NCBI GenBank assembly: GCA_963754925.1
Contig: CAVWHX010000009.1
Location: 69,671 to 133,670, forward strand
Direction: 5' to 3'
DNA length: 64,000 bases
Source: an uncultured delta proteobacterium
GTDB taxonomy: Bacteria; Myxococcota; B64-G9
The position numbers and the translations under genes are program-made. The stretch's first letter is position 1. Every line of letters begins with the position of its first letter. The notes under the pieces are model-generated. The model saw only the letters and a program-made list of their open reading frames with translations. It searched no databases and was not told the origin of the DNA. Positions 370 through 56,725 of this stretch are shown piece after piece.

Positions 370-473
370 GCGTCGTATAATTAACATTGGACGCCTCCCC
401 CATTCGCTTTTCTCTCATTATCCTTAAGTCATCTCTAAGGGTCGGGCGCCGTCTTTATCCTCTCCCACGCCTT

Positions 474-2012
474 TCATGGTGAAAGGGACAGCTCTGAGTG
501 AGATACGAAGGAGGATACTCGACCACCGGTGTGACTCTTCGTCGGAAAGTAAATACTATACCTCTCTCCACTGTACTCTTTGGAGAAGACTTCCTGGTTC
601 CGATTCACTCGCTCGATAAAGGCTTGTCGTGTTGTTTCGCAGGCGCCGTCTCCGGGCAAGCAAGGAAATGATGATGGGCTAAAGATTATCGCTGAGACCG
701 CATCTTTCTTGCTCCAATCATCGTAGATTTCAGACGCTTCTTCCAAAGAGGAGTAGAACGGTATGAAGAGAGAATCGACGTAGGCTGCAGGAATTGGATC
801 AGAGGTGAGTATGGCGCCTGGTACCGGATGCGATGCAAAATATCGGTAATATTCGGCTACCATTGGTCGTTCGTTGCTTGACATCATCTCATAGTATTTC
901 CCGTCTTCTCTGACGGATAGAGTTCCCGAATAGAGAAAAAACAAAACTATGACGGCCGCGGCTGCGGTGCTGAGTATTATGTTCATTTCTCGTTTTTTTC
1001 GCAGCCACTCTAAAAGCCACATGACTCCCCATGCTGCACTGATCGCGAAGTACGGGAGCATCACAATGAGGAACCGTGTCTGCTTGTTGATTATCCAAGT
1101 AAAGTATCCCAGGTATACCGCCAAAAAGAGGACGATAGTGCGCCTATGAGTGTTACGAGCGGTTGTTGAAAATACTATCAGCGCGGCGCCAAGGATGACA
1201 AACCCCAACATCCAATTGTCATTAATCGCGGCAGCGGGGTAAAAAGTCAGATTTTGCCAGAAACCGGGGACGCTATCGAATGGGTTTGATTGATGCCAGC
1301 TGCCAAGTATTATAGGTCTGAAAAATGCGTCGATGATGCTGCTTGAATCTGGGTGATACATGAAGTAATTGAAAATGAAAAATGGGGCCACCGTGATGAA
1401 GAATGAAGAGGTTATCGTTAAGGCCTTCTTGAAAAGGTCTTTTGTGTCCTTGTCATAGGCCCATGAGAAAACCAGAGACATGATAATCGCGCCGAATGCG
1501 AGTCCTTGAGGAAATCTTGTCAGGAATGAAACGCCGCAGAACACTCCAGTTAATGCGTATTTTTTCTTGATGAAAAAGAATAGCGCGCAGAGTACGAAGA
1601 ATGTCGAAGGGATATCCGACAGCGCGGATCCGGTATATGAGAAATATGTTGGTGATATCGCCATGGTTAATGCGGCCAAAAGCGCAACTCTTCCATCAAA
1701 TATTTCCTCTGCGATGAGGTAGGTAATAACGATCGCCCCTGCAGAGAATAGGATCTCGACTATTTCCGCAACATACACCTGGGGAAGACCAACTTTCCAT
1801 ATCGTTCCCAATATGAGCGGAAGCACCAGGGGCCTGATCTCTTCAAATAACCCGATATGGCCAAAAGACATAAGATATTTGCCCATGGCCAGATAGACTG
1901 CCTCATCCCATATTATTTCGTGAGGTTTGAGTAAGAAAAATATCCTTACCACAATAAACAAGGCTATGAGGTACCCTATCCAAATATATTTTTTGAAAAG
2001 ACTTTCTTTCAT
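474..2012 (-). CDS. integral-membrane glycosyltransferase, family 39/83-like (ArnT/PMT type, polyprenyl-phosphate-sugar dependent)
   Basis: 512 aa with many predicted TM helices. DE motif in the first loop (IIWDEAVYL) and a soluble C-terminal domain. ATGA overlap with the upstream phosphoesterase gene indicates an operon. Confidence 0.55.
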   Translation of the reverse strand: MKESLFKKYIWIGYLIALFIVVRIFFLLKPHEIIWDEAVYLAMGKYLMSFGHIGLFEEIRPLVLPLILGTIWKVGLPQVYVAEIVEILFSAGAIVITYLIAEEIFDGRVALLAALTMAISPTYFSYTGSALSDIPSTFFVLCALFFFIKKKYALTGVFCGVSFLTRFPQGLAFGAIIMSLVFSWAYDKDTKDLFKKALTITSSFFITVAPFFIFNYFMYHPDSSSIIDAFFRPIILGSWHQSNPFDSVPGFWQNLTFYPAAAINDNWMLGFVILGAALIVFSTTARNTHRRTIVLFLAVYLGYFTWIINKQTRFLIVMLPYFAISAAWGVMWLLEWLRKKREMNIILSTAAAAVIVLFFLYSGTLSVREDGKYYEMMSSNERPMVAEYYRYFASHPVPGAILTSDPIPAAYVDSLFIPFYSSLEEASEIYDDWSKKDAVSAIIFSPSSFPCLPGDGACETTRQAFIERVNRNQEVFSKEYSGERYSIYFPTKSHTGGRVSSFVSHSELSLSP

Positions 2013-3781
2013 TGGCAGACACCGGGAGCCACGGCGAAGTCGCCGGTGAAGTTAAGCACCGCCCAGAACGTGTGCGTGGTTAGATCAACACCGTAGGTGC
2101 CCAGGCCATAGCCGCTGGTATAGGGTCCCACGACAAACATCTTGGTGCCGCCCGTATTGCCGCTCACCACGTTGACCCACTTCTTGTCTCCTGGGGTCGC
2201 GATTCCCAAGCAGCCTGTCTTAGCCATTTTATTGCTGACTTTATCGTCATCGTAACTCATGGAGAGGACAAAGATATCGGTTGTAGCTTTGCCCTGCTCC
2301 GTCATGCCCCAAAGGGTGAGAATGTCGCTATAAAGATCGCCGAATCGGTCCGTCCAGCCCGTATTGACGGCCTTGCTGACGGTCCGGCCGCTGCCGTCCC
2401 TTTGAGTGCTGCTGTTGGTCCCGTCGAGGATGGCGGCGGTGGTGGTGTCGTATATATCGGATACGACCGAGTACGAGGCGCCCTGGGCGACGATGAATTC
2501 CTGGCCGTTGAGGCTATAGCCGAAGGAATCGCGTTTGGTGAACGTGAGTGTCGGTGTGGCGCTGATGGTCACGTTTTTTCCGGGAGCGGCAGGCGTGCCC
2601 ATGAGATCCGAGGCGTAATAGTCCACGGTAACCGCAGGTCCTTTGACCGTGAAGATGTAGTAACCGATCCGGTAGAGATCTTGACCCAGCGGCGTTTCCC
2701 GAGCCACGCCAAACGACGGCACGTCGTATTTTTCGTCATGGGAAGGCGTTGCCGGGGTATAAAACTTGTAGCTGCAGGAGGCGACGATCAGGTCCGTGAT
2801 CCTGACCGTTCCCTTGGTGTCGGACACGAGGGCACGGTTGTGCATGTGGTCATGGCCTCCAATAAAATAGCGCACGCTGTTGCCGAAGAGGGAGTCGATG
2901 AAGACGTCCGTTGCCGCCGGGTTCTGGGAAGGATTCGAGGTGGGATCCAGGTTAACGTTATTGCTCAGGAGAGTATCCACGTGGTTCTCGGTGATGATCC
3001 CCTTGTGACTGAAGACAAAGGCATGCGTTCCGGCGTCTCGCCCGGTTAAGGCGCTGGTGATCCACTCTTGCTGAGGAGCAATAGCGCCGAGTCCGTCCGC
3101 GGCGGCATCGGCGGGCGTGAACTGATCAAGGATCACGAAACGGGCGTTACGATAGTCGAAGGAATAGCTCAAACCCGTCAAATCACCGATCCCCTGGACG
3201 TTCCCGGGGGTGCTGAAGTTTGTTCCCGTGGTGAAGACGGAGCCTCTCTTGGGCGGGAGCTGAATGTTGTCCGTGGTGGTGATGAATGCGTCCCGCGGTG
3301 TGGCATTGTGGTGTCCCTTTTGAGTTTGGGGATAGATGCGCTGGAATTCGCGGGCCGCGGCGGAGTCGGCCACGTAGCCGCTGTCTTCGCCTTCGTGGTT
3401 GCCGCGCATAGGGAAGAAGCCGATCCGTGCGTTGTAGAGAGCCTGGGCATAGGTGGCGCGAGTGTCCATGGCCAACACGGTGCCGTTGTCCGTGAGATCA
3501 CCTACCTGGATCACGAATTTGACGCGCCTGTTGATGAATTCCCTATTCACCTGGTCAATAATGCCGACGGCAACGGTATTGGGATTCTTGCCGTCGTCCG
3601 TGGGCCATTGCGTATCGCCCATGACGCCGAATGCCCAGGTATGCAAGAAGTCTGTCGATGGCACCCGCGAGGAAACCCGGGCATCGAAATCTTCAGTGAT
3701 GTCCTGCAACTGGTCACAGCCGACAACGAGGATCGCTGCCGAAAGAGCAATGGCTATGACGGTTTTTCGAATTGACAACAT
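2009..3781 (-). CDS. secreted lipoprotein metallophosphoesterase (calcineurin-like)
   Basis: ORF track gives 2009..3946. I place the start at the internal ATG 3781 (MLSIRKTVIAIALSAAILVVGC, lipobox), 8 nt after GGAGGA. Motifs GDTQ, GDLTDNG, GNHE, GHDH. Confidence 0.65.
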   Translation of the reverse strand: MLSIRKTVIAIALSAAILVVGCDQLQDITEDFDARVSSRVPSTDFLHTWAFGVMGDTQWPTDDGKNPNTVAVGIIDQVNREFINRRVKFVIQVGDLTDNGTVLAMDTRATYAQALYNARIGFFPMRGNHEGEDSGYVADSAAAREFQRIYPQTQKGHHNATPRDAFITTTDNIQLPPKRGSVFTTGTNFSTPGNVQGIGDLTGLSYSFDYRNARFVILDQFTPADAAADGLGAIAPQQEWITSALTGRDAGTHAFVFSHKGIITENHVDTLLSNNVNLDPTSNPSQNPAATDVFIDSLFGNSVRYFIGGHDHMHNRALVSDTKGTVRITDLIVASCSYKFYTPATPSHDEKYDVPSFGVARETPLGQDLYRIGYYIFTVKGPAVTVDYYASDLMGTPAAPGKNVTISATPTLTFTKRDSFGYSLNGQEFIVAQGASYSVVSDIYDTTTAAILDGTNSSTQRDGSGRTVSKAVNTGWTDRFGDLYSDILTLWGMTEQGKATTDIFVLSMSYDDDKVSNKMAKTGCLGIATPGDKKWVNVVSGNTGGTKMFVVGPYTSGYGLGTYGVDLTTHTFWAVLNFTGDFAVAPGVCQ

Positions 3782-3837
3782 TGGGTTGATGGTTTCCTCC
3801 TCTCGATCAGTTTTCGAAGGGAAGGATACTGAGGATT

Positions 3838-3859
3838 CGTTACAGCGTTGTGACAACTG
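3838..3859 (-). promoter_or_regulatory. Pho-box-like 7-4-7 direct repeat (TTGTCAC aacg CTGTAAC) about 60-80 bp upstream of the phosphoesterase start
   Basis: Read directly on the minus strand. Matches the architecture of PhoB boxes (CTGTCAT n4 CTGTCAT). A PhoB-like regulator is encoded 2 kb away. Confidence 0.35.
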
Positions 3860-6463: not shown

Positions 6464-8146
6464 TCAAATGGAGGTTGGTTGCGAGGCGAGGCGCGTGGTT
6501 TGCACGCTCTTCCCAACCCTCCAGACAAGTTTATGCAGCAGGTACCTTACCATTCCTGGCGCTAGAGCCAGCTGCATGGCGATATCATATGAACGCAGGT
6601 CATTCTGTTCTTCTAAAGGCTTGGGCAAGGGCAGCCCTTTTAGTCCATGCAATTTTTCCTCGATGAGATTTTCACTCTCATCGTACAAACCGTCCTCGAT
6701 TTTTTTCAAGTAATCAATGTAGTATCCATCCGCGACGCGCGCAATGGATTCGTTCATTCTTCTAATGCCGTAGCCATGCACGATTCCGAACAAAGAATCG
6801 AATACATTTTTTTTGAACACACTTTTGAGAATATAGCCGTGCGTGTACACGTCGTTATAGATGTCGATGATAATGCGCTGGAGAGTGCTCGGTTTCATTT
6901 TTTTGGGGAAATAGGTTATAAAGCTGCCGGTCATGTAGTCGGCATACGAGGAATTTGACGGGTCCGTCATTTGGTAATACGTCATGAACCGTCGATTGAG
7001 CGGTACCAACAGGGTGCCGTCGTCTTCCCGTTTGATGTCGTGCAGGATAAACACATTAAGACTCAGATTGTTTTGCCTGATAAATTGCACCAACTCGCGC
7101 GCCTTCTCTTTGGTATCGCCGTCATACCCAAACGCGAATGTGCCAATCACATGGATGCCGCTTTTTTTGATATTATGAAGAGACCATACCACATCGGCGC
7201 TGGTCTGCTTTTTATTAAAGGCTTTGAGGTTCGCATCAACCAGGGATTCGACTCCCACAATCAGGCATTGAACGCCTGCTTTTTTCAAAAGGGCGAGTGT
7301 TTCTTCATCGTGACCTATCTCTTCGCGCTCGAAAACGATTAAGGTCGCGCCCAGGTTTTCCTTTATCAGCCGGTTGAGCAAAAGCTTCGTTTTCTCTCTG
7401 TTTCCGAAAAAGCTGTTGTCCACCACGAAAAACCAATCATTATAGCGCTGCTTGTCCTTGATTTCGGCGATTATGCTATCGATGTCCCGGTTTCTGTACA
7501 CGCCGCCGAAAAGCTTTTGCGTAGGACAGAAGCTGCATTTATAGTGACATCCCCGCGAGGTCTGGAGCGTGTTTTGAATATTATACAAACGTCCAATACC
7601 CAGTGTCATGCGTTTGAATCCGCGGATGAGCGTCATATCGGGAATAATCGAAGGAATTACGGGAGGAACACGACTCGGCGTTTTTACAATCCCTCTGTCT
7701 TTTTTAAACATAATACCTTGTACGCGTTCAATATCTCCCCGGTTCATGATACATTTGATAAGTTCCGGCAAAACCTCATCGCCCTCGCAGCAGACCGCGT
7801 AATGACAGAAATCCAACACGGTTTCCGGGAACATGATAACGTGCGGGCCGCCGATTATGACGCTGATGCCGGGTTTTTCCTTCATAATACGCATAGCGCA
7901 TTCTTTAACTTTATTATACGCGGGGGCAAACAGCGGAAAACATACAACGTCGCAATCGGTCATGGTTTCAAAATCCATCCGACTTGTTCCTTCCAGATAA
8001 ACCGCAACATCGTATCCCTTTTGCTTTAATATCGTTGCGAGAAGAGGCGTTCCGTATTTCGGAAACACTCTTCTCGCGGCAAGGGTATTCAACTTCGCGT
8101 TATACTCGATAAAATTCACTCTCGTATGAGATGGTATATCTGACAT
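6464..8146 (-). CDS. B12-binding domain-containing radical SAM protein (class B)
   Basis: N-terminal cobalamin-binding-type domain followed by CxxxCxxC (SRGCHYKCSFCP). 560 aa. Confidence 0.8.
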   Translation of the reverse strand: MSDIPSHTRVNFIEYNAKLNTLAARRVFPKYGTPLLATILKQKGYDVAVYLEGTSRMDFETMTDCDVVCFPLFAPAYNKVKECAMRIMKEKPGISVIIGGPHVIMFPETVLDFCHYAVCCEGDEVLPELIKCIMNRGDIERVQGIMFKKDRGIVKTPSRVPPVIPSIIPDMTLIRGFKRMTLGIGRLYNIQNTLQTSRGCHYKCSFCPTQKLFGGVYRNRDIDSIIAEIKDKQRYNDWFFVVDNSFFGNREKTKLLLNRLIKENLGATLIVFEREEIGHDEETLALLKKAGVQCLIVGVESLVDANLKAFNKKQTSADVVWSLHNIKKSGIHVIGTFAFGYDGDTKEKARELVQFIRQNNLSLNVFILHDIKREDDGTLLVPLNRRFMTYYQMTDPSNSSYADYMTGSFITYFPKKMKPSTLQRIIIDIYNDVYTHGYILKSVFKKNVFDSLFGIVHGYGIRRMNESIARVADGYYIDYLKKIEDGLYDESENLIEEKLHGLKGLPLPKPLEEQNDLRSYDIAMQLALAPGMVRYLLHKLVWRVGKSVQTTRLASQPTSI

Positions 8147-10281: not shown

Positions 10282-11117
10282 TCAGGACCCCATCGACCTC
10301 ATGACCTTAAGCATTAACCAATCGAAAGCCCGGTCGGACAGCACCGAGCGCAAGAACAGTATCGGCCGGGCGCCGGCCCCGGCCGCGTACCTCGTCTTCG
10401 GCCTCTTGGCCAGGAGGACCTTTTCGATCACCTTGGCGATAACGTCCGGGGGAGAGGCCCGCTTATACGCAACGGTAAGAAGACGCGCGTTCAACCGCGC
10501 GAGCTCCCGGTAGTCGGTGCTGCCGGAGGTCTTCATCACATTCTCGGCCGCAATGCCACCCCACTCGGTCTTGATGCCGCCGGGCTCGACAACGACCACG
10601 TCGATGCCGAAACCTTTGACCTCGAGCCGCAGGCAATCGCTGAGCGCCTCGAGGGCGAACTTCGTCGCGTGGTACCAGCTCCCCATCGGTTCGTAGATCT
10701 TTCCGCCGATCGACGAGATGTTGACGATCTTCCCGTAACGCTGCTTCCGCATCGAGGGCAGCACGAGCTGCATCATCCGCGCGGCCCCGAATACATTCAC
10801 CTCGAACTGGCGCCGGGCTTCGGCCGGGAAACGTCCTCGAGAGCGCCGTACGAGCCGTAGCCGGCGTTGTTGACGAGGATGTCGATCCGGCCCTGCTCCG
10901 CGAGGATGCACGCTACCATCGCGACCATCGACCCTTCGTCGGTGACGTCAAGCTTCAGGATGTTGATGCCTCGTAACTTCAAGGCGGCCATGCGATCAAG
11001 TCTACGTGCCGCTGCATAAACAACAAATCCTGCCCGCATCAGCCGGATTGCCGTTGCCTCGCCGATTCCCGACGAGGCCCCCGTGACGAGGACGACTTTT
11101 TTCGATTTCATGTCCAT
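10282..11117 (-). pseudogene. short-chain dehydrogenase/reductase split by a 1-bp frameshift (N-part 10797..11117, C-part 10282..10911)
   Basis: N-part has TGASSGIG and NNAG. C-part has YHATK and EARRQFEVNVFG. Restoring one C in the run near 10828-10833 joins them (…EDVS-PAEARRQ…). Start ATG 11117 follows AAGGAGAA. Confidence 0.65.
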
Positions 11118-11492
11118 GGGTTCTCCTTTGTCAATTCCCCAACGTCTCGGCACCGGCACAGCTTCTATGGGTTTTTTAATTAAGGGAAGAAAAAAATTAG
11201 GCCCCGGAGCGACAAGCTACACCCTAAGGGGGGAGTAGGCATAAGCCTGTTACACCACGGGGCCCTACAATGTATAGAACGCTCGATGGTCCTTAATTAT
11301 TCCGCCTACATTAGGCAAAGGACACGCAGGGGCGCACCATCCCCCTCATGGCTGCCCACCCAAGAGCCTTCGAATAGATTGATTCAAATTGAATGAAATG
11401 ATAGTTCATCATGATTGAGCCCGTCGCCTCATAGACTGGCTCTGGCAATGGCCATAACTGCGATGGTCGTTTATCAAAGAGGAGGATGGAAA

Positions 11493-12278
11493 ATGCGTTA
11501 CCTGCTCATTGCGTTTTCGATGCTGCTTTTGCCGGTGAGCTTGGCCCAAGCTCAGATCAGCGTCAACGTCGGTATCAACATGCCGGTATATCCGGAGTTG
11601 GTCCCCGTGCCGGGCTATCCCGTCTACTACGCCCCTCACGCGAGTTCGAATTACTTCTTTTACGACGGAATGTACTGGGCGTACTGGGAAGACAACTGGT
11701 ATGCGAGCGGCTGGTACAACGGGCCGTGGCAGCCGGTGGCGCCCATGGAGGTGCCGCTGTTTGTGCTGCGCGTTCCGGTGCGCTACTACCGACAGCCTCC
11801 GATGTATTTTCGCGGCTGGCGCGACGACGGGCCGCCCCGATGGGGCGAGCATTGGGGCCATGACTGGGAAGACCATCGACGCGGATGGGACCGCTGGGAC
11901 CGCCGCGCCGTTCCCCATGCCGCACCGTTGCCGGTTTACCAGCGGGCGTATTCGGGGGACCGCTATCCTCACGAGGCGGAACAGCGACATTCGATTCAAT
12001 CCGAGCATTACCATTATCAGCCGCATGAGGCCGTATCGCGGCAGCATTTTCAACAGCTGCACAACACGGGCAGCTCGCGCGCCCAGCCGCAACAGCCTAT
12101 CCGAGAGCGATCGTCCGTTCACCAACAGCCGGTGCAACCGCATCAGCAACCGCAACACCTGCAACCGGCGCAGCCGCAACACGCGCAACCGGCGCAGCGC
12201 CCGCAACACCCCCAAACCGCACCGCACAACACGGGTCGGGAGAACAGACACGAAGAGCACGGCGAGGAACACCGATAA
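11493..12278 (+). CDS. secreted protein: aromatic/Pro-rich N-domain and His/Gln/Pro-rich low-complexity C-terminal tail
   Basis: Start ATG 11493 after AAAGAGGAGGA. Signal peptide MRYLLIAFSMLLLPVSLAQAQ. C-terminus HQQPVQPHQQPQHLQPAQPQHAQPAQRPQHPQ…HEEHGEEHR. The equally long antisense ORF is a G+C artefact. Confidence 0.5.
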   Translation: MRYLLIAFSMLLLPVSLAQAQISVNVGINMPVYPELVPVPGYPVYYAPHASSNYFFYDGMYWAYWEDNWYASGWYNGPWQPVAPMEVPLFVLRVPVRYYRQPPMYFRGWRDDGPPRWGEHWGHDWEDHRRGWDRWDRRAVPHAAPLPVYQRAYSGDRYPHEAEQRHSIQSEHYHYQPHEAVSRQHFQQLHNTGSSRAQPQQPIRERSSVHQQPVQPHQQPQHLQPAQPQHAQPAQRPQHPQTAPHNTGRENRHEEHGEEHR

Positions 12279-12324
12279 TTAGCTATACTTCATTTCCAAC
12301 GATAGGTATCGAGATTTCAATCTG

Positions 12325-13530
12325 TTAAGAATAACAAGTTCTATTAATAATAACCTTCTTTAATTCATCGGAAAGGTTATTAAAGTATGCGCAGTATCCG
12401 GCTACGCGCACCAGGAGATAGGGGTGTTTTTCCGGATGGTGGTATGCATCCAGTAATAGTTCTCTGTTGAGAACGTTGGGCTGGAATTGCATGCCGCCTT
12501 TCTTGAAATAGGTGCTGATTAAACCTGAGAGGTTTCTGACTCCGTCAGGGCCCTGAAACAATGCGGAATCAATAGTGAACGTGACCGTGGTGCCATTGGG
12601 GGCATAGGTTTCAAAATCAACGCCGGCCACGGAATTCAGTGATGACAATAAGTCCGCCATCTGCATTCCATAATGAGGAGCAACACTGTTGGCGAGAGGA
12701 ACCCCCCTCAATCTGCCTGAAGGCAGTGAAGGCGTTTTTGCACCGTAAACATCACTTACATTCAAGGCGTAATAACCGGCGGTATATATGCCGTTACGCG
12801 GACAGTTCTCTACCTGTTTCAAAGCGTTAACATAAATCTGTAAGACTCGGTTAACCCATTCGACCGCCTCACGGGACTCATCATGACCAAATTTCGGCAC
12901 AGCGAGTAACGCCCATCGGATGCGCTGATAATATTCTCCGGCAAAGTCGTTGTCGATGGCGTTGATGATGTCATGTATTGAATACAGCTTTTTCTCGTAT
13001 ACGACTTCATTAATGGCGTGCAGCGAATCCGCGACATCCGTAATTCCTACTGCCTGAATGCCGCTGCTGTTAAACGTCGTGCCGCCTTCGTTCACATCTT
13101 TTCCGCTTTCAATACATCCCGTAAAGAGAGAAGATGCCAGGGGTGTGGTAAAGTCTTTACCAATCGCCTTTTCGATTTTCTGGTGATCAGCCAATATAGA
13201 GGACGCCAGATGATTCAAACGTGTCTGATAGCGTTCAAGCAGTTCATCCATGTTCGCGGGCGGATTGGGCCTGGAGGCCCTCTTCTTTTTATACCTGCCG
13301 CGGGCTTGGTTATATTTCAACACAATAAATTTAGAAAATGCAGTATCCCCGCTGAAGGTGTATTCGACAAATTTGGTGATCATTTTCTCCCGTTGATCGG
13401 AGAGTCCAAAGTTCCATAAATCATCTTCTTCGCCTTTCATGGCCTGCAGGAACGGCAGGACCACGTTCATATTGGCGCAGTCGGTATTGCCGAAATGATC
13501 ATCAGAAGCAGTGGGCTCGACACATCCCAC
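12325..13530 (-). CDS. glycyl radical enzyme, C-terminal half (Cys loop GCVEP to glycyl-radical motif RVAGY)
   Basis: VGCVEP at the ORF start. C-terminus …LLVRVAGYCAYFNNLSDELKKVIINRT aligns with the PFL/glycerol-dehydratase glycyl radical domain. Continues the upstream ORF after a 1-bp frameshift in a T5 run (13573-13577). Confidence 0.8.
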   Translation of the reverse strand: MGCVEPTASDDHFGNTDCANMNVVLPFLQAMKGEEDDLWNFGLSDQREKMITKFVEYTFSGDTAFSKFIVLKYNQARGRYKKKRASRPNPPANMDELLERYQTRLNHLASSILADHQKIEKAIGKDFTTPLASSLFTGCIESGKDVNEGGTTFNSSGIQAVGITDVADSLHAINEVVYEKKLYSIHDIINAIDNDFAGEYYQRIRWALLAVPKFGHDESREAVEWVNRVLQIYVNALKQVENCPRNGIYTAGYYALNVSDVYGAKTPSLPSGRLRGVPLANSVAPHYGMQMADLLSSLNSVAGVDFETYAPNGTTVTFTIDSALFQGPDGVRNLSGLISTYFKKGGMQFQPNVLNRELLLDAYHHPEKHPYLLVRVAGYCAYFNNLSDELKKVIINRTCYS

Positions 13531-15629
13531 TATCGAGTAGTTTCTCGCGTCTTCCCGTGTGGTGGGGTAATGTTTTTGTATGGTTTTAATATACCTTCAT
13601 CATTAAACAATTCCGGCATGGGTGACCCATTGATATATACCTCTGCAATCCTGTCCAGATATCGCGGGGGACTGTTTTGATGAATTCTTGCCGTCATATT
13701 TACGGCGAGAGGCTGCAGTTCGCAAACATCCAGCAGCATGTAGGTTAGGTCATTGGTGGCGTCGTGGCCGTTTTTGTCAACACCTCCAAACGTCAACGCT
13801 TGATCGGTAGACTGCGTCTCAAAAAGTCTTCCGATTCTAAGATAGGTATCGCCGTCGTTTACGAGAATGGCCTCGTCCATTTTGAGAATAAATAAGGCCA
13901 GCAGTTCTTTCGCCTTCTCATAATCCATTATTCCGGCCTCGGTATCCTTTTTATAGTAGGGATATAGTATCTGGTCGAGGCGTCCAAAGGATACCGCATT
14001 TTCATAGGACTCTATGCACAGCGCGATCTGTAAAAACATCATGGATTGGAGCGCCTCATGATAGGTGCGGGCAGGATATCGAGGGACCTGTCTGCAAATC
14101 TCCGCCATTTCTTCAAGTTCTCTACGGCGGGCCGGATCTGTTTCTTTTTGAGTTAACTCCGACAGTACATTGGCGTATCTTTCTGCAAAACTCTCCAGCG
14201 CTTTGAGGGCGATAATGGCGCCGTTATAGAAGTCCTGATTATTTTCAGGCTTTTCTTTTTGCTTTTGTTCAATCTCTTGTATGATTCCGGTGGTTCCACG
14301 TTTGAGCATGCGTTCGAAATTGACGACAAAATGCGCTATGGCGGCCGTGTTATTATTGAATCCGGTATTCATTTCGGAACATCGCGCAAGGTTCAACATA
14401 AAATCCGAAAAAGATTTGTACACCTTCATCAAAAGGCAGTGTTTTCGCCAGAAGGGAAATATTCTAAAATAAAAATTAAGCTTGTCTCTAAAAGAACACT
14501 TGAAGGAAACCGGCGTCTGTCGATTGATTTGATGGAGAATGGAAACAAAAAGAACGCCGTAGTGTTCTTCCCAGATCTGGCCGCCGACGCGCTTTGAAGT
14601 AAAATTGCCGACGAGCAATTCATGAGGATAGATGATGATTTTCTTGTTTTTCAATACATGCGACAGACGCTGCGCTCTATGAATATGAACCGGTTTACTG
14701 AAACCATTCTTCTTGTAGAATTCCGTTTTCAGTTTGGATGCTTCAAAACAGAGGTGATAATCACTCCCCCTGATATCTTTTTGTATGTCATAAACGCGAT
14801 TGGTAAAGACGGCTGTATGCCGGGAAGCATCCAAATCACAACATTCGGCCTTGATGTCAAACGATTTGAATAATTCGACCGCGTTTTTGATGGCGGCCAG
14901 GCTTTGATCGGGAGTAATATTCAACGATTCCCGCACCAGACCCAAACGCTGTGCCTTATCTTCGTACAGGTTGTGGTATTTCAGCAACTCAATTGAGTCG
15001 TAATTGATAGACTTTAAAAAAACAGCAGTTGCTTGTATAGTGCTTTCCGTATCGTTGTATCCCGGCACCATCACCATGCGGAATTTAACATTGGCGTTTG
15101 AATCAAGCAGTTTCCTTAGATTACTGTGGATTAATGCGCCATCCTGTTTTGTGTATTTCTTATGAAGATCGTCATCGCCGACAATCTTCAGATCAACTAA
15201 AAACAAATTTATATACGATGCTATGTTGTGTATATGTTCCCAGGGCGCATGCAGGGAGGTTTCGACAACGACATGAATGTTATTATTCTTAAATAAATTC
15301 AAGAGACTTATAAGGCTGCCCGGGTCCTGTAACAGAGGCTCACCGCCGCTGAGGGTCACACCGCCGCCGGTTTTGAAGTAGTACTCGTTATCTCGTAACA
15401 CAACTTCCAGTATGTCGGAAATCGAATACGTGCCGTCGGGCGCCATGGTGGGATTGAATGACAGCGCTTCGGGATTCTGGCACCATACACATCTCAGGGT
15501 GCACCCCTGAAAGAAAATAGTGGTGCGGATACCGGGGCCGTCATGAACACAGGTGCGTTGGATTTTTAAAACTTTTAGCTTCTCGGTGTGTTCGACTGGG
15601 CGATCATCAAGATTTTTGGCGGTCTGCAT
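13530..15629 (-). CDS. in-frame fusion: GRE-activating radical SAM enzyme (about residues 1-265) plus N-terminal half of the glycyl radical enzyme
   Basis: Activase part: GCTLRCVWCQNP (CxxxCxxC), SGGEPLLQ, C-terminus like PflA. An 8-aa linker is then followed directly by the GRE N-terminal region (RAQRLSHVLKNKKIIIYPHELLVGN…; …FNDEGILKPYK). No stop or start between them in any frame. Confidence 0.8.
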   Translation of the reverse strand: MQTAKNLDDRPVEHTEKLKVLKIQRTCVHDGPGIRTTIFFQGCTLRCVWCQNPEALSFNPTMAPDGTYSISDILEVVLRDNEYYFKTGGGVTLSGGEPLLQDPGSLISLLNLFKNNNIHVVVETSLHAPWEHIHNIASYINLFLVDLKIVGDDDLHKKYTKQDGALIHSNLRKLLDSNANVKFRMVMVPGYNDTESTIQATAVFLKSINYDSIELLKYHNLYEDKAQRLGLVRESLNITPDQSLAAIKNAVELFKSFDIKAECCDLDASRHTAVFTNRVYDIQKDIRGSDYHLCFEASKLKTEFYKKNGFSKPVHIHRAQRLSHVLKNKKIIIYPHELLVGNFTSKRVGGQIWEEHYGVLFVSILHQINRQTPVSFKCSFRDKLNFYFRIFPFWRKHCLLMKVYKSFSDFMLNLARCSEMNTGFNNNTAAIAHFVVNFERMLKRGTTGIIQEIEQKQKEKPENNQDFYNGAIIALKALESFAERYANVLSELTQKETDPARRRELEEMAEICRQVPRYPARTYHEALQSMMFLQIALCIESYENAVSFGRLDQILYPYYKKDTEAGIMDYEKAKELLALFILKMDEAILVNDGDTYLRIGRLFETQSTDQALTFGGVDKNGHDATNDLTYMLLDVCELQPLAVNMTARIHQNSPPRYLDRIAEVYINGSPMPELFNDEGILKPYKNITPPHGKTRETTR

Positions 15630-15697
15630 TTTCTAAACAGCGCCTTCTCACATCTAGCTTCATGTTAACTCTATACGCATTACTGAGTCAATCTTAC

Positions 15698-16618
15698 CTA
15701 TCGCACGAGGACCAAGACGACCTTGTTTTTCCCACCCTTCTTCGCCTGGTACAGCGCCCGATCCGCTTTTTCGATAAGCTTCCGAGGCGAAGTTATGGTG
15801 CGATCGCAGACGGCGACTCCCACGCTAACGGTAATCCGGTGCCCGCCACCGGTTATTCTCCCGGCTTTTGCTCTGATTCTTTCCGCGATTTCGCCCGCCT
15901 CATCGGGGTCGTTGGTGAATGGCAGAATGGCGACAAACTCCTCACCGCCAAAGCGGCAGCAGATATCCGAATCTCTCATCTGCTCTTTCATCGTTTTGGC
16001 TACTTTGATCAGTACCCGGTCTCCCTCTTGATGGCCGTACCGATCGTTAACCGACTTGAAGTTATCGATGTCCAACAGAATTAAGGACACGCCGACGCGG
16101 TATCGTCGCTGGCGTCTGAACTCCAGTTCCAGCAGCTCATAACAGCTCGAGTGGTTGAAAAGGCCCGTCATCCCGTCGCGCATCGAGAGGTCTGCTATCT
16201 CCGAGACATAGGCCTCGGCAATCAACGTGGGCGAACTCAACTCACTCGTGATATTCGAAAGGTAATCCAAGGTGGCGACGGTCATGCGCACGTTTCTGCC
16301 AAGTTTCTCCGACATTATGTGCTTGTGCACCAGCACCGTATCCCAAAGGACCTCGGCGATCTTGGGAGCAAAATAGTGGTGCGTAATCGCATAAAACAGG
16401 TCCGAATAAAAGGCGCTCCCCCGACTGTTCTTCTGTGTGCAAATAAAAGCATCCTCCGCCTCTGTCAGTTGTCGGTCGCCGGCACAGGCTGATACTAAAT
16501 CAACGCGCACGGCATCCGACGCGGTTGTTCCCCGCAGCCGATCCGTGTCGTTCTCATCTTGTGCCAACGTGGGCATTCTTCGGCTACTCCCACCCATCGC
16601 CAGTCCTCCGTCGGCCAT
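15698..16618 (-). CDS. GGDEF-domain diguanylate cyclase with N-terminal sensory domain of unknown type
   Basis: GGEEF motif (RFGGEEFVAILPF), with the DRYGHQEGD and SVGVA segments typical of GGDEF domains. Confidence 0.85.
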   Translation of the reverse strand: MADGGLAMGGSSRRMPTLAQDENDTDRLRGTTASDAVRVDLVSACAGDRQLTEAEDAFICTQKNSRGSAFYSDLFYAITHHYFAPKIAEVLWDTVLVHKHIMSEKLGRNVRMTVATLDYLSNITSELSSPTLIAEAYVSEIADLSMRDGMTGLFNHSSCYELLELEFRRQRRYRVGVSLILLDIDNFKSVNDRYGHQEGDRVLIKVAKTMKEQMRDSDICCRFGGEEFVAILPFTNDPDEAGEIAERIRAKAGRITGGGHRITVSVGVAVCDRTITSPRKLIEKADRALYQAKKGGKNKVVLVLVR

Positions 16619-16740
16619 TCCCCTCTCGGTTCGGCCACGACCGTTAATTACAACCTGTCCAGAATTATACTAGTATTTGAGGTTCTGGGCAAAAATAGAT
16701 TAACGTATCACCTATCCAGATGATACCTTTGATCAGCTTC

Positions 16741-17007
16741 GGTAGTGTCTCATTTTACCAGAGGCTTACGGGTGTTCGGCAGGCGACCGTCTATCCCACA
16801 AGGGGACAAGAGCTTGTAAGCCTCACTTTGTTCGGCAACAAGCTCTAGCACCCAGGCTGCATTTGCATAATGAATTTTTCAATCTTGAGCGGTTAATTAG
16901 AGACTGTTAGTGAGCGAAGCGATACTTACAGTCTCTTATCCTTTAGGGTATGTTTCGGTCGCGTGTCGTTCGACGAATACCCGTAAGCCTCAAACTGAGA
17001 CACTACC
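16741..17007. mobile_element. MITE-like 267-bp non-coding element, copy 1 (TIR GGTAGTG…CACTACC; 8-bp target duplication TCAGCTTC)
   Basis: About 95% identical to 35558..35824. Terminal inverted repeats of 12+ bp extended by imperfect pairing. Flanked by direct TCAGCTTC at 16733-16740 and 17008-17015. No ORF. Confidence 0.6.
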
Positions 17008-47491: not shown

Positions 47492-49773
<2,282 letters not shown>

Positions 49774-52090: not shown

Positions 52091-54596
52091 ATGCCCGTTG
52101 TAGTCGATCTCAACAAACGCACGATAACCGGCGCCATTCGCGATTTGACCGAATCGATCCGCGAGGGCGCACGCGGCCTTGGATTGCTCGGCCGCGTTCG
52201 GTCGGAGTTGGGCACGCGCATTCACCAGAATTACCGCCGGACGCGCGCTCAACACGAAGGATTCTCGAGTGAAGTGGCCGTGGCGCTGCACACCGAGTTC
52301 GACGGGTTTCAGGTCGCCCTGCGGGGCCGCATTGACGGTTGTATCCGCGGCCCCGACGAGGTCGTGCTTGAAGAAGTAAAGTCGGTGTCGTTGGGCATGC
52401 CCGATTTGGTCCGCATGAACGCCGAAAGCTTTCCGGAATACAGTCTGCAGCTACGACTCTATGCGCTGGCCTACGCTCCCGAACATCCGCAGCAAACGAT
52501 CCGAACGCGCCTGATCCTCTTCTCGCTCATCGATAACGGAAGCCGCGAGATCCTGGTCCCCGTTAATCCAGCCGATACCCGCGCGCAATTGGTGGACCTG
52601 CTTCGGCAACGGATTAGCGAAGCGGAGAAACAGCGTGAGCGAGCTGCGCGGTTTGCCGACCTCGCCGCAAAACTGAGGTTTCCCTATCCCGCCCTGCGCC
52701 CCCATCAGGCGGAATTGATGAACGTCATGGAGGCGGGCCTCAGCGCGAGCCGCCCGGTGCTGGCCATGGCGCCGACCGGGATCGGTAAGACGGTGAGCGC
52801 GTTGTTGACGGGGTTGCGGTATGTTCTCCAAAAGAATACGCAGCTCGTGTACGTAACCGCCAAGACCACCCAACAGCCCCTGGTGGAGCGCACGTTTGAA
52901 GACATCTGCGTAAACGCCGAAATACCGTCCGGAGCGTTGCGCTGCCTCACCCTGCGTAACAAGGAAAGCATGTGCCCCTCCGGTTCGTTGCTGTGCCACG
53001 CGGAGGTGTGCGAGTTTCTCGAAGATTTTCCGGCGCGCGTCGAGCGATCGCGGGCGATTGAGAAACTGTTGCAGCTTGGCGCGCGGATCGATCCGGATGC
53101 CGTCCGGGCGCTCGGCGAAGCGCATCGGTTGTGCCCCTTTGCCCTGTCGCTGATGCTTATCCCCGAGGTGCAACTCGTTATCTGCGATTACAATTATATG
53201 TATGATCCGAGCGTAGCGCTCGCTCAATTCTCCGATGCAACGACCCTTAAGCCGGCGGTGATCATCGACGAGGCCCATAACCTGTTCGACCGCGCCCGCG
53301 GCTACTACTCGCCGTTTCTGGCAAGCCGCGCACTCGATGAGCTTGATCAACGACTCGTAAGCGGCGAGTTTTTGGGGTGTTCTGACCGTACGGATCAGCT
53401 TTCGTTCCGCCCGCTACTTGGCAGCATCAACGGCCCGGTTTTGTTCGAACGGCTGCGCGGGTTTGTAGCCCAGCTCAAAGATAGCGTCGCAAAAACCCTG
53501 ACCGCGGCCGCGACCCTCGAAGGCGGCCTCGACCACTGCCGGCCGGTCGAGCCCGAGCGCGATCGCTGGCACGACCACGCCGAGCGCGCCGCCGAGTTGC
53601 TCCTTGCCTACGCCCTCTACAACCGGACCCATGCGCTCGCGTACGCTCAGGATCCGATACTGGATCTCCTTTCCCTGGTGATTCACCTGCGCGACGTGGT
53701 ATCCGCTGCGGGCAAAGAAATTGTTCCCTACGCGGCGTTTGCCGAAGCGCCGCAAAGCGAGGGTTTCCGGCTGCCTGTGCATCAACCCGGCCAAGCGGCT
53801 GCTCGAGCGACACCGACAGATGGCCGGCACCATCGCCATCAGCGCCACCCTGACACCGTTATCGTATTACGAGGATGTGCTGGGCTTCGCCGCGCTGAAT
53901 CCGGTCATGGCGTCATTCGCCTCGCCGTTTCCCCGCGAGAACCTCGGCGTCTGGGTGGTGCCGTCGGTCTCTACCGCCTTTCGCGCACGCGGCCGTCACC
54001 GCGAAGCTATCGCGCGAATCATCGAACAAACGTACGAAGCCAAACACGGGCGGTACGTCGCCTTTTTTCCGAGTTATCAGTTCTTAACCGAAGTGCATCC
54101 GATCTTGAAGATTCCGGCGGAACACGTGCTGGTGCAGCAACAAGGCCTTACCGGACCGGAGCGAAAGCGGTTGCTTACCGCCTTCCGCGAGAGCTCGGGC
54201 CCCGTATTGCTGCTGGCGGTGATGGGCGGGGTGTACGCCGAAGGGATCGATCTGCCGGGCGCAGAACTCATTGGGGCGGTCGTCATCGGCCCGGGTTTTC
54301 CTCAGGTGGGTTTCGAGCGGGCGGTCATGCGGGATTACTTCGAACGCGAGTACGAGCGCGGTTTTGCGTATGCGATGGTGTACCCGGGAATGCAACGGGT
54401 AATCCAATCGGCCGGCCGGGTGATCCGCACTCCGGATGACGCCGGGGTGATCGTCTTGGCCGACCGCCGCTTTGCCGATGCGGAGCTTGCCGCCTGCCTT
54501 CCGGCGCACTGGTATCGCTACGATCCCAGCGAGTTGGTCACGGATGATTTACCAAAGGCTTTGGCCGCCTTTTGGGAATCCGTTATTTCCCCATGA
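52091..54596 (+). CDS. DinG/Rad3(XPD)-family ATP-dependent DNA helicase with Fe-S domain; frameshifted near 53700-53790
   Basis: Walker A APTGIGKT. Cys-rich insert (CPSGSLLCHAEVCEF, …CPF). DEAH box IIDEAHNL. Second ORF (53721..54596) carries IAISATL and the C-terminal GGVYAEGIDLPG…QSAGRVIR. The first ORF ends in Arg-rich nonsense. Confidence 0.8.
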
Positions 54597-56725
54597 GCAC
54601 GACGCTGCTGCGAGGACTGGTATGATAGAATTCAGCCGGATCAATCAACACCTCTTTGCCAAAATCACAAAAGTCCTCTCCCGGCGCGAGGCTGGTGTCA
54701 ACCACGCGATGCCACCTTAATCCTTTCGGCAATGGCGGAAGCTTCACATGACTATGCTGGTAGTCGGCGTTGAGAATAAAAAACAGTCGATAATCGCCGA
54801 TTTCTGACGGTTCGTCCCGGCCGTCGAGAAAACAACACAGTGTCCTGGCATTGGGATCGTCCCAGCGGGGCTTCTTCCCATCCGGACCAAACCAAGCAAG
54901 ATGCGGAGCGTCGCTTGCGTCCTCTCCCGGGACCCAACTAAATTTGCGCCGATAGAGGATGGTGCAGTGCTTATTAAACTCAATCGCCTTGCGAAAGAAC
55001 GTATAGATATCGCGATTGCGATCGACCAAGCTCCAATCAAACCAGGAAATCTCATTGTCCTGGCAATAGGCGTTGTTGTTGCCCTTCTGGGTGCGCAAGA
55101 ACTCATCCCCGCCCAGGATCATCGGCGTGCCGAGCGAGAACAACAGGTGGCAGATATAATTTTTTACTAATTTGCGGCGCAACGAGTTGATCTCGGGATC
55201 GTCGGTTTTTCCCTCGGCTCCGCAGTTCCAGGAATTATTGTCATCGCTTCCGTCGCGGTTGTTCTCTTGGTTGGCCTCGTTGTGTTTCTCGTTGTATGAA
55301 ACCAGGTCGTAGAGGGTAAAGCCGTCATGGCAGGTGATGAAGTTGATGCTGTTGAAGGCCGAGCGCCCGTCATCGCCGTACAGATCGGCCGAGCCGGTAA
55401 TCCGCCAGGCGAGCTCGCGCAATTGACCGCTGTCGCCCTTGCCGAACCGACGGCAAACATCCCGAAAGCGCCCATTCCACTCGGACCAGTCGATCGGAAA
55501 GTTGCCGACCTGGTAGGTGGCCAGGTCCCAGGGCTCGGCGATGAGCTTGATGCGGTTGAGGGCCGGGTCCTGTGAAACGGCGTCAAAAAACGACGCCGAA
55601 CGATGGAATGACTCTTCGCGCCGCCCGAGCACCGAGGCCAGATCAAAACGGAAATCCGTCGACATGCATGACGTCGACCCAGTAGCGCAGCGAGTCCATC
55701 ACCAGTCGAATGGCCTGCGGATCGTCGCTGTTCAGACTATTGCCGCAGCCGGTATAGTTCATGCATAACGGCGTCCGGCTCTTCCGTTGTCTCCGATGAG
55801 GACGTAGTAGGTCGGGTTGTCGATCCCCCTGAAAGCAGACCGTCGGCCCCAGCTCGTTGCCCTCGCCGGTATGGTTGTACACCACGTCGAGAATCACCTC
55901 AATGCCGGCCTTATGAAGCTCGCGCACCAAGGTCTTGAACTCGCGCACCTGGCATCCCGGCGCTCGTTGACTGCTATAGGACCATTCGGGGGAGAAGAAT
56001 CCGATGCTGTTGTATCCCCAGTAATTGGTCAGCCCGCGCTCGATGATAAAATCCTCGACATAAAATTCGTGCAGCGGCAGAAGCTCCACCGCGTTAATCC
56101 CCAGCTCCTTGAGGTGAGGAATCTTCTCGATGAATCCGAGGTACGTGCCCGGGTAGCGAACCTTCGACGAGGGATGGGCGGTAAACCCCTTGACGTGAAC
56201 CTCGTAAATAACAACTTTCTCAAGCGGGAGGTCGGGCGGCGTATCGCCCTGCCAGTCAAAGGCGTCGTCGATCACCAGGCATTTGGGAACGATCGCGGTG
56301 TTGTCGCGCGGCATCCATGGTCAGGTCGGGTTGCGGCGCCCACGCATCGTAGCCCAGCAGCAGATTGTTCGGTGTTGTCGAAATTTTCCGGTCAGCGCCT
56401 TGGCGTAGGGGTCGACGAGCAGCTTGTTCTCGTTGAAGCGCAAGCCCGCGAGCGGATGGTAATCGCCCCGGACTTTATATGCATACAGCTGTCCGGCCGT
56501 GCACCCATGAACGAAAACGTGCCAAATGCGCCTGCTGTAATTTTCTAACTTGATAATGTCGGTGGGCGGTCGATCGGCCCGGTCAAAAAGCAGCAAAAAA
56601 ACTTCGCGCGCACGTTGAGAGTGCAGCGCAAAATTAACCCCGTCGGGCGTCAGCGTGGCGCCTTGCGGGTGAAAGCTCCCCGGCGACAGTTTTCGTTTGG
56701 TTTTGTGCTCGAGACGGTACTTCAT
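54583..56725 (-). CDS. glgX: glycogen debranching enzyme GlgX; in three ORF pieces (frameshifts near 55650 and 56315, probably another compensated pair inside the middle piece)
   Basis: Collinear with E. coli GlgX: N-terminal CBM48-like segment (GVNFALHSQRAREVFLLLFD), GH13 catalytic regions (ELLPLHEF, GIEVILDVVYNHTGEGN, VDGFPF/RFD, LIAEPWD, FITCHDGFTL, GTPMILGGDEF). Confidence 0.8.

Follow-up and report, generated by a model that had tools for sequence, protein, structure and literature searches.

An activase fused to its glycyl radical enzyme in an uncultured deltaproteobacterium and in a conserved family of bacteria and archaea

Glycyl radical enzymes (GREs) have been described as two-protein systems, in which each GRE needs its own separate activase (PMC13450708). 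In a review of June 2026, the activases are described as separate proteins, and the words "fusion" and "fused" are absent (PMC13450708). The only described natural GRE-activase fusions that we found in the literature are the eukaryotic NrdDG proteins, in which a class III ribonucleotide reductase (RNR) is fused to its activase, an arrangement proposed to ease horizontal transfer (PMC3019208). A paper on PFL-like fusions of an activating enzyme (AE) with a GRE was not found in our literature search; papers beyond those searched may exist. The current study deals with a stretch of 64 kb (here called the window) on contig CAVWHX010000009.1 of an uncultured delta proteobacterium (GenBank assembly GCA_963754925.1), the minus strand of which carries an AE-GRE fusion gene at positions 12325..15629. 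The locus probably represents one gene for a single-chain, self-contained GRE of 1101 aa, and the AE-GRE fusion is, judging from sequence, genuine. The in-frame fusion claimed in a preliminary description of this DNA thus proved to be real, but it is not unique to the locus, which is a member of a large conserved family.

Like NrdDG, the window gene combines a GRE and a radical S-adenosylmethionine (SAM) activase in a natural single open reading frame (ORF). However, NrdDG belongs to the RNR branch, has the order NrdD then NrdG, and occurs in eukaryotes, whereas the window family is PFL-like, starts with the activase, and is found in bacteria and archaea. The second group of close systems comprises PFL2-class GREs with a separate activase, e.g., DhaB1/DhaB2, propanediol dehydratase, PflD/PflC, CutC/CutD, and the protein of structure 2f3o. 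They share with the window enzyme the PFL-like fold, the RVxGY and GCVEP loops, the latter with its CXE motif, and the equivalents of a His and an Asp residue (H164 and D447 in glycerol dehydratase), and their activases match the same model, TIGR02494. In contrast to these systems, enzyme and activase form one polypeptide in the window, with the activase at the N terminus and without a ferredoxin-like insert. The window GRE differs furthermore by scores below the cut-offs of TIGR01774 and the equivalog models, by E-N-A in place of G-H-S, by an insertion of ~45 to 60 aa, and by the lack of a conserved operon.

The gene is present as a 699-aa ORF (13530..15629, minus strand) followed in a different frame by a 401-aa ORF (12325..13530, minus strand). 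Pfam searches of the former revealed Radical_SAM (aa 38 to 195, E = 1.5e-17) and Fer4_12 (aa 30 to 134), followed by PFL-like at aa 277 to 682 (profile positions 3 to 410 of 647, E = 3.4e-90). The 401-aa ORF carries the remainder of PFL-like (profile positions 480 to 646, E = 6.7e-37) and Gly_radical (E = 6.6e-22), so that PF02901 with a C-terminal PF01228, the domain pair of the GRE superfamily, extends over both ORFs. These results bear out the preliminary description, which had proposed a complete activase followed by a PFL2-like GRE half in the 699-aa ORF, with the Cys loop and the glycyl radical domain in the downstream ORF; the portion from 13530 to 14850 is indeed GRE-like, and all listed motifs (CTLRCVWCQNP, SGGEPLLQ, VGCVEP, and RVAGYCAYF) were found. 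Its estimate of about 1100 aa after a one-base repair agrees with our reconstruction of 1101 codons, which ends with a stop codon at 12325-12327 and is based on the ORFs and on tblastn with the homologue P0002.

All parts of the fusion gene lie on the minus strand. The radical SAM activase domain (aa 1 to 262, 14844..15629) was delimited by Pfam, TIGR02494, and the PflA structures 3c8f and 8fo0, and its [4Fe-4S]/SAM cluster motif C43-x3-C47-x2-C50 is encoded at 15480..15503. The linker at the junction, CCDLDASRHTAV (aa 263 to 274, 14808..14843), has a fixed length and stop-free DNA. It is followed by the N-terminal, PFL-like part of the GRE (aa 275 to 678, 13596..14807; Pfam and alignments to 2f3o, 5i2a, 9rco, and 1r8w), which ends at the frameshift. 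Beyond the frameshift lie the Cys loop G-C-V-E-P at 13513..13527, with the predicted catalytic Cys703 and Glu705 of a CXE motif, a family-specific insertion of ~45 to 60 aa (approximately aa 733 to 792, 13255..13434; bounds approximate), and the Gly loop R-V-A-G-Y at 12394..12408, in which Gly1078 (12397-12399) is predicted to bear the radical. The cluster motif and both loops do not vary among the 24 sequences of the family alignment A1; the insertion is unaligned in all four alignments to PDB structures.

Evidence for the fusion comes from its relatives. A search of 5.8 billion proteins yielded 622 matches at E<=1e-10. Among the best 120 of these, 116 contain all four domains PF04055, PF13353, PF02901, and PF01228 (66 to 80% identity), and 117 have a length of 1067 to 1131 aa, the commonest length in the AE-GRE family being the 1101 aa of the reconstructed protein. 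A scan of species-representative genomes revealed 56 loci of the family (49 to 86% identity), 51 of them complete, and in all 51 a single open frame passes through the junction. The DNA of the window copy likewise reads through the junction without a stop, as originally reported, and the short linker is of fixed length. It is free of gaps in the window copy and in 23 of the 24 relatives, the exception having one extra residue, and the amino acid sequence of the junction is conserved (…DLDxSRHxAVFTxRVYDIQ…).

An artefact would require that the AE and GRE genes are separate and that a sequencing indel erased the stop of the first and the start of the second. The assembly does carry indel errors in other genes of the window, and in a distant relative (L079) AE and GRE are separate adjacent genes with the AE first. 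This explanation is nevertheless next to untenable, given that the same in-frame junction recurs in all complete loci from many independent assemblies with G+C contents ranging from 37 to 70%, and that the junction of the fused proteins is conserved without gaps. Due to the shared open junction in 51/51 loci and the 116/120 fused matches, the junction of the family cannot be ascribed to an indel artefact, and for the window copy such an artefact is very unlikely.

The interruption of the window gene is a different matter. The preliminary description had located the frameshift in a T5 run at 13570-13580, which is refuted by the DNA sequence and by tblastn: the actual site is at 13594-13595, ~20 nt away. 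After the codon GAA (13598-13596), just "GG" precedes TAT (13593-13591), i.e., one nucleotide is missing between FNDE and YIKT, where relatives have V, I, or L. The switch falls within 13594-13596, with stop codons of the second frame just upstream. With the 1101-aa protein P0002 as the query, tblastn aligned residues 1 to 689 in one frame and 680 to 1101 in the next without any gaps, with identities of 80% before and 84% after the shift, and a single added base results in a protein of 1101 aa that is colinear with homologues of the same length.

One could argue that the fusion family is real and that the window copy is a true pseudogene, truncated by the deletion at 13594-13595 before its Cys and Gly loops. 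The two ORFs in different frames are consistent with this explanation, as are the deletion in a GG dinucleotide outside any long homopolymer, the compositionally foreign character of a gene of a kind that is often lost after acquisition, and an identical 699-aa product in a public collection (P0001). However, at least four further, unrelated genes of the window show the same kind of split, with complementary Pfam halves, which speaks for assembly indels or genome-wide decay. They comprise a short-chain dehydrogenase/reductase (SDR) gene (10797..11159 and 10282..10911, matching adh_short profile positions 1 to 97 and 100 to 186), a KatG-like catalase-peroxidase gene (48088..49770 and 47492..48169), a DinG/XPD-like helicase gene (52091..54439 and 53721..54596), and an isoamylase/GlgX-like gene (55643..56314 and 54583..55665). 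In the SDR gene, too, the break consists of one missing nucleotide beside a GG. Moreover, compared with 24 relatives, the repaired protein retains 356 of 359 family-invariant residues, its three deviations being conservative, while intact family members deviate at 0 to 19 of these columns; and the part behind the shift is the more conserved one. We therefore consider a pseudogene unlikely, albeit by far the most serious of the alternatives discussed here, and an assembly indel is the most likely cause of the two separate ORFs, since the other genes are split likewise and the invariant residues are kept.

The density of about one frameshift per 10 kb in the window suggests that either indel errors of the assembly or a widespread decay of genes is responsible. 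Including the fusion gene, five genes are split within the 64 kb, a number that fits the residual indels of a long-read assembly, and contigs of related samples are named in the style of a long-read assembler, which is circumstantial. The related contig L086 (93% identity; ENA ERZ25039519 contig_91573) ends 15 nt inside the fusion gene, short of the frameshift.

The activase half resembles E. coli PflA (3c8f, 3cb8) in being a radical-SAM-only protein of ~250 aa that has the motifs CX3CX2C, DGxGxR, and GGE but lacks auxiliary clusters; in contrast to PflA, it is covalently joined to its substrate protein and belongs to another sequence family. It surpasses the cut-off of TIGR02494, the model of PFL2-type (PFLE/PFLC) activases (213.6 versus 174.35 bits), but not that of the PflA equivalog TIGR02493 (142.7 versus 231.75 bits); NrdG models score 42 to 51 bits. 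The original label "PflA-type" is hence appropriate for the architecture without a ferredoxin insert, but it was rejected as a family assignment. The eight-Cys ferredoxin-like insert, which harbours two auxiliary [4Fe-4S] clusters, was not found in the activase, in which the reconstructed protein has Cys only at positions 27, 43, 47, 50, 263, and 264 and the best TIGR02494 match starts at profile position 104. The distantly related fusion P0123 carries the insert where the window family has about ten residues, and P0126 also retains a Fer4 insert. Since TIGR02494 is passed, TIGR02493 is failed, and the Cys residues of the insert are absent, the activase is evidently a PFL2-type enzyme that has lost its ferredoxin-like insert.

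Its catalytic motifs DGPGIR (D30 to R35), C43/C47/C50, and G95-G96-E97 are invariant in the family alignment, for which reason the activase looks active. It might alternatively be a structural or regulatory remnant, with a separate activase elsewhere generating the glycyl radical. A remnant could explain both the unusual fixed 1:1 ratio of AE and GRE and the absence of the ferredoxin-like domain of most non-PFL activases, in which an insert with eight Cys is typical (PMC13450708). On the other hand, PflA and NrdG function without such a domain (PMC13450708), the DGxGxR, CX3CX2C, and GGE motifs are invariant across phyla, and neither the window nor the sampled loci showed a second activase in the vicinity of the gene. 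A loss of function of the AE domain is accordingly highly improbable.

With respect to the GRE half, the preliminary description had recommended an alignment to characterised GREs, and this comparison identified PFL2 and eliminases of the CXE type as the best solved matches. The top score of 366 bits was obtained with A. fulgidus PFL2 (2f3o; PFL2 overall 344 to 366 bits), followed by propanediol dehydratase (5i2a, 341 bits), 9rco (335 bits), glycerol dehydratase (1r8w, 320 bits), PflD (8yjo, 299 bits), and the best chain of CutC (9f3w, 290 bits), while MasD (129 bits), PflB (about 125 bits), and TutD (103 bits) scored far lower. The CXE motif of eliminases and isomerases is present as C703-V-E705, and GCVEP is invariant in the family alignment. 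In all characterised 1,2-eliminases and isomerases, the CXE glutamate deprotonates the substrate hydroxyl (PMC13450708). Structure-sequence alignments indicated that the equivalents of H164 and D447 of glycerol dehydratase are kept. Residues H281/S282 of the latter, located within IESNGHSIS, are what we take to be its active-site His-Ser pair; the window GRE has E-N-A (IESYENAVS) at the G-H-S position, and 2f3o is similar (ENYEQAIS).

None of the curated models reached its cut-off. The PFL2-3 subfamily model TIGR01774 (cut-off 678.2 bits) gave 529.7 bits for the repaired protein and 511.4 bits for the homologue P0002, and the equivalog models HpfG (374 bits), HpsG (357), PflD (356), HypD (351), and CutC (311) have cut-offs of 1000 to 1109. 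A formate lyase of the PflB or TdcE type is contradicted by the TIGR01255 score of 114.7 versus a cut-off of 994.2 and by VGCVEP, which contains one Cys instead of a Cys-Cys pair. In addition, the insertion of ~45 to 60 aa behind the Cys loop is absent from solved GREs and from P0123. Because every curated cut-off was missed, the GRE is, by these scores, a distinct, uncharacterised clade. The substrate class is, as had been stated beforehand, not readable from the sequence; the chemistry is most likely a radical 1,2-elimination or isomerisation of a hydroxylated substrate.

A hydrocarbon-activating enzyme similar to X-succinate synthases is the competing assignment. In its favour one could cite the best solved match, 2f3o, for which both a glycerol dehydratase and an alkylsuccinate synthase function are under debate and which shares with the family the replacement of the dehydratase His-Ser pair by E-N/Q-A, as well as the frequent occurrence of the family in Smithella and Syntrophaceae. 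Yet the CXE glutamate, the hallmark of eliminases and isomerases, is kept, the MasD and TutD scores contrast with 290 to 366 bits for PFL2, the eliminases, PflD, and CutC, and genes resembling small subunits neither adjoin the fusion gene nor occur nearby in the window or the sampled loci. The family is also present in Leptospira, Oscillospiraceae, Bacteroidaceae, and Asgard archaea, and there is thus little chance that an X-succinate synthase-like reaction, rather than elimination or isomerisation, is catalyzed.

By analogy with the established mechanism of GREs and their activating enzymes, the fused protein may work as follows. The AE domain would bind a [4Fe-4S] cluster via C43, C47, and C50, together with SAM; a flavodoxin or ferredoxin of the host would reduce the cluster, and cleavage of SAM would give rise to a 5'-deoxyadenosyl radical. 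The hydrogen abstracted by this radical would come from Gly1078, which may belong to the same chain or to its partner in a GRE dimer. The stored glycyl radical could then generate a thiyl radical on Cys703, which would take a hydrogen beside the hydroxyl of the substrate while Glu705 deprotonates that hydroxyl, with a 1,2-elimination or a ring-opening isomerisation as the outcome.

A more far-reaching proposal is that the tethered, ferredoxin-less activase resides in a stable complex with its own GRE, within the chain or within the dimer, where it would serve as a built-in activator and re-activator of an enzyme with a substrate specificity outside the characterised classes. We regard this proposal as tentative. 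Several observations weigh against our interpretation of the locus. A permanent 1:1 ratio of AE and GRE is at odds with the catalytic use of activases, and in PFL such a ratio sped up the loss of the radical (PMC13450708). The AlphaFold2 model computed on the family alignment is poor (pLDDT 55, pTM 0.38), and no interface is inferable from it. The term "eliminase or isomerase" rests on the CXE motif and overall similarity, no curated model having been passed, and the missing base lies, as mentioned, outside any long homopolymer.

The composition of the gene is indicative of a foreign origin. Its G+C content of 45.6% is below that of the left (57.3%) and right (50.8%) flanks, confirming the low-G+C islet noticed at the outset; in steps of 300 nt, the G+C content falls from 0.61 to 0.44 at 12300 and is back at 0.53 by 15300. 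The edges are sharp at the ends of the gene, and the deficit is the largest among all loci compared, with the caveat that the whole window is compositionally patchy. At the DNA level, similarity to other loci does not extend beyond the gene, Smithella being the best match with 81% identity. A horizontal acquisition of the gene as a single-gene unit, which had already been proposed, is supported, since the drop in G+C content matches the gene body, the similarity stops at the gene ends, and the neighbours are not conserved. In the proposed scenario, the gene would have entered this Desulfobacterota-like genome in that form, and the fusion would have eased the transfer because one gene brings both the enzyme and its activator.

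The fusion gene is preceded at a distance of 68 nt by a GGDEF gene (15698..16618), and the split SDR gene is located downstream. The gap between the GGDEF gene and the start codon of the fusion gene contains a weak promoter-like site (TTGACT-18-TAACAT, 15662..15691, minus strand; 9/12 matches), which stems from a consensus scan only and has no evidence of function. A comparison of positions 1 to 173 of contig L086 with 15692-17007 of the window showed that the GGDEF gene and its surroundings are absent from the former, in which the stretch immediately preceding the fusion gene is ~100 nt from the amidohydrolase gene. The named relatives of the flanking amidohydrolase are in Desulfomonilia and Desulfobacterota, which is indicative of a host from these groups. 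The G+C boundary immediately downstream of the fusion gene is occupied by a 287-aa ORF (11415-12278, plus strand) with a Q/P/H-rich tail and no Pfam hit, which has an antisense ORF of the same length (11409-12272, minus strand). A B12-binding radical SAM protein of 560 aa (6464-8146, minus strand) is encoded at a distance of ~4 kb, without being of the activase type or having an evident link to the fusion gene.

Conserved neighbours or a pathway operon were not found in a comparison of 53 related loci and the window. In 10 loci, from metagenome-assembled genomes of Smithella-like and other Desulfobacterota, the gene is immediately preceded by one for a FadR/FCD-type GntR regulator, and an MFS_2 transporter occurs in seven loci, mostly of Clostridia and other Bacillota. 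Sporadic neighbours are GDPD, APH kinase-like, glycerol-3-phosphate-dehydrogenase-like, patatin, Aas-like, and sulfatase genes. The hint of these neighbours at a hydroxy-acid, sugar, or lipid-headgroup substrate was too weak and was not used. For the nearest unfused GREs (34 to 36% identity; Dehalococcoidia and Syntrophaceae), the genomic context offered only housekeeping synteny.

The search for other AE-GRE fusions that had been suggested for this locus revealed, apart from the large family, a set of more distant fusions. In the species-representative scan, loci of the family were found in Smithella/Syntrophaceae, Desulfomonilia, Myxococcota, Bacteriovoracaceae, Spirochaetota including Leptospira, Hydrogenedentota, Clostridia/Oscillospiraceae, Bacteroidaceae, and Asgard archaea, and clustering at 50% identity reduces the family to one full-length representative (P0081). 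Its members are named in public records, e.g., "pyruvate formate lyase family protein" or "radical SAM protein"; what is new is the recognition and description of the AE-GRE family, the sequences themselves already being public. The family members P0051 (932 aa) and P0056 (748 aa) are truncated, lack Gly_radical, and are located on long contigs; they may represent further frameshifted assemblies.

The distant fusions (proteins P0123, P0126, P0134, and P0239; loci L077, L078, and L080) are metagenomic, with 27 to 39% identity. They have the same order of activase and PFL-like GRE in one frame, but differ from the window family in two respects: the activase has retained the two-cluster Fer4 insert, and no insertion follows the Cys loop. 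The separate adjacent activase and GRE genes of locus L079, which are arranged in the same order, are a plausible precursor of the fusion. Three further observations concern unusual GREs. In P0126, the loops are VGSCE and PLSGN, in place of GCVEP and RVxGY, respectively. Locus L085 contains GRE and then AE matches at 422-3853, in the same frame and 66 nt apart, which may reflect a fusion in the opposite order. Finally, P0143 (943 aa) combines an N-terminal SCP2 sterol/lipid-transfer domain with PFL-like and Gly_radical, another unreported GRE domain fusion, which may indicate that the substrate is hydrophobic.

No structure of a GRE-activase complex exists (PMC13450708; PMC4034769), and insoluble activases have been named the main obstacle to the characterisation of new GREs (PMC13450708). 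A natural, conserved single-chain AE-GRE corresponds to a fixed 1:1 complex and could help to show how activase and enzyme dock. It makes the access of the Gly loop to the activase testable, as well as activation in cis versus in trans across the dimer and the role of the ferredoxin domain, without which the window family manages. The family furthermore suggests a design for engineered self-activating GREs, and ecologically it represents a common, unassigned radical enzyme of syntrophic Desulfobacterota, of spirochaetes and clostridia, and of Asgard archaea. If our proposal is true, the window gene would encode a single-gene, horizontally mobile radical enzyme and provide the first natural system for isolating and solving a GRE-activase complex.

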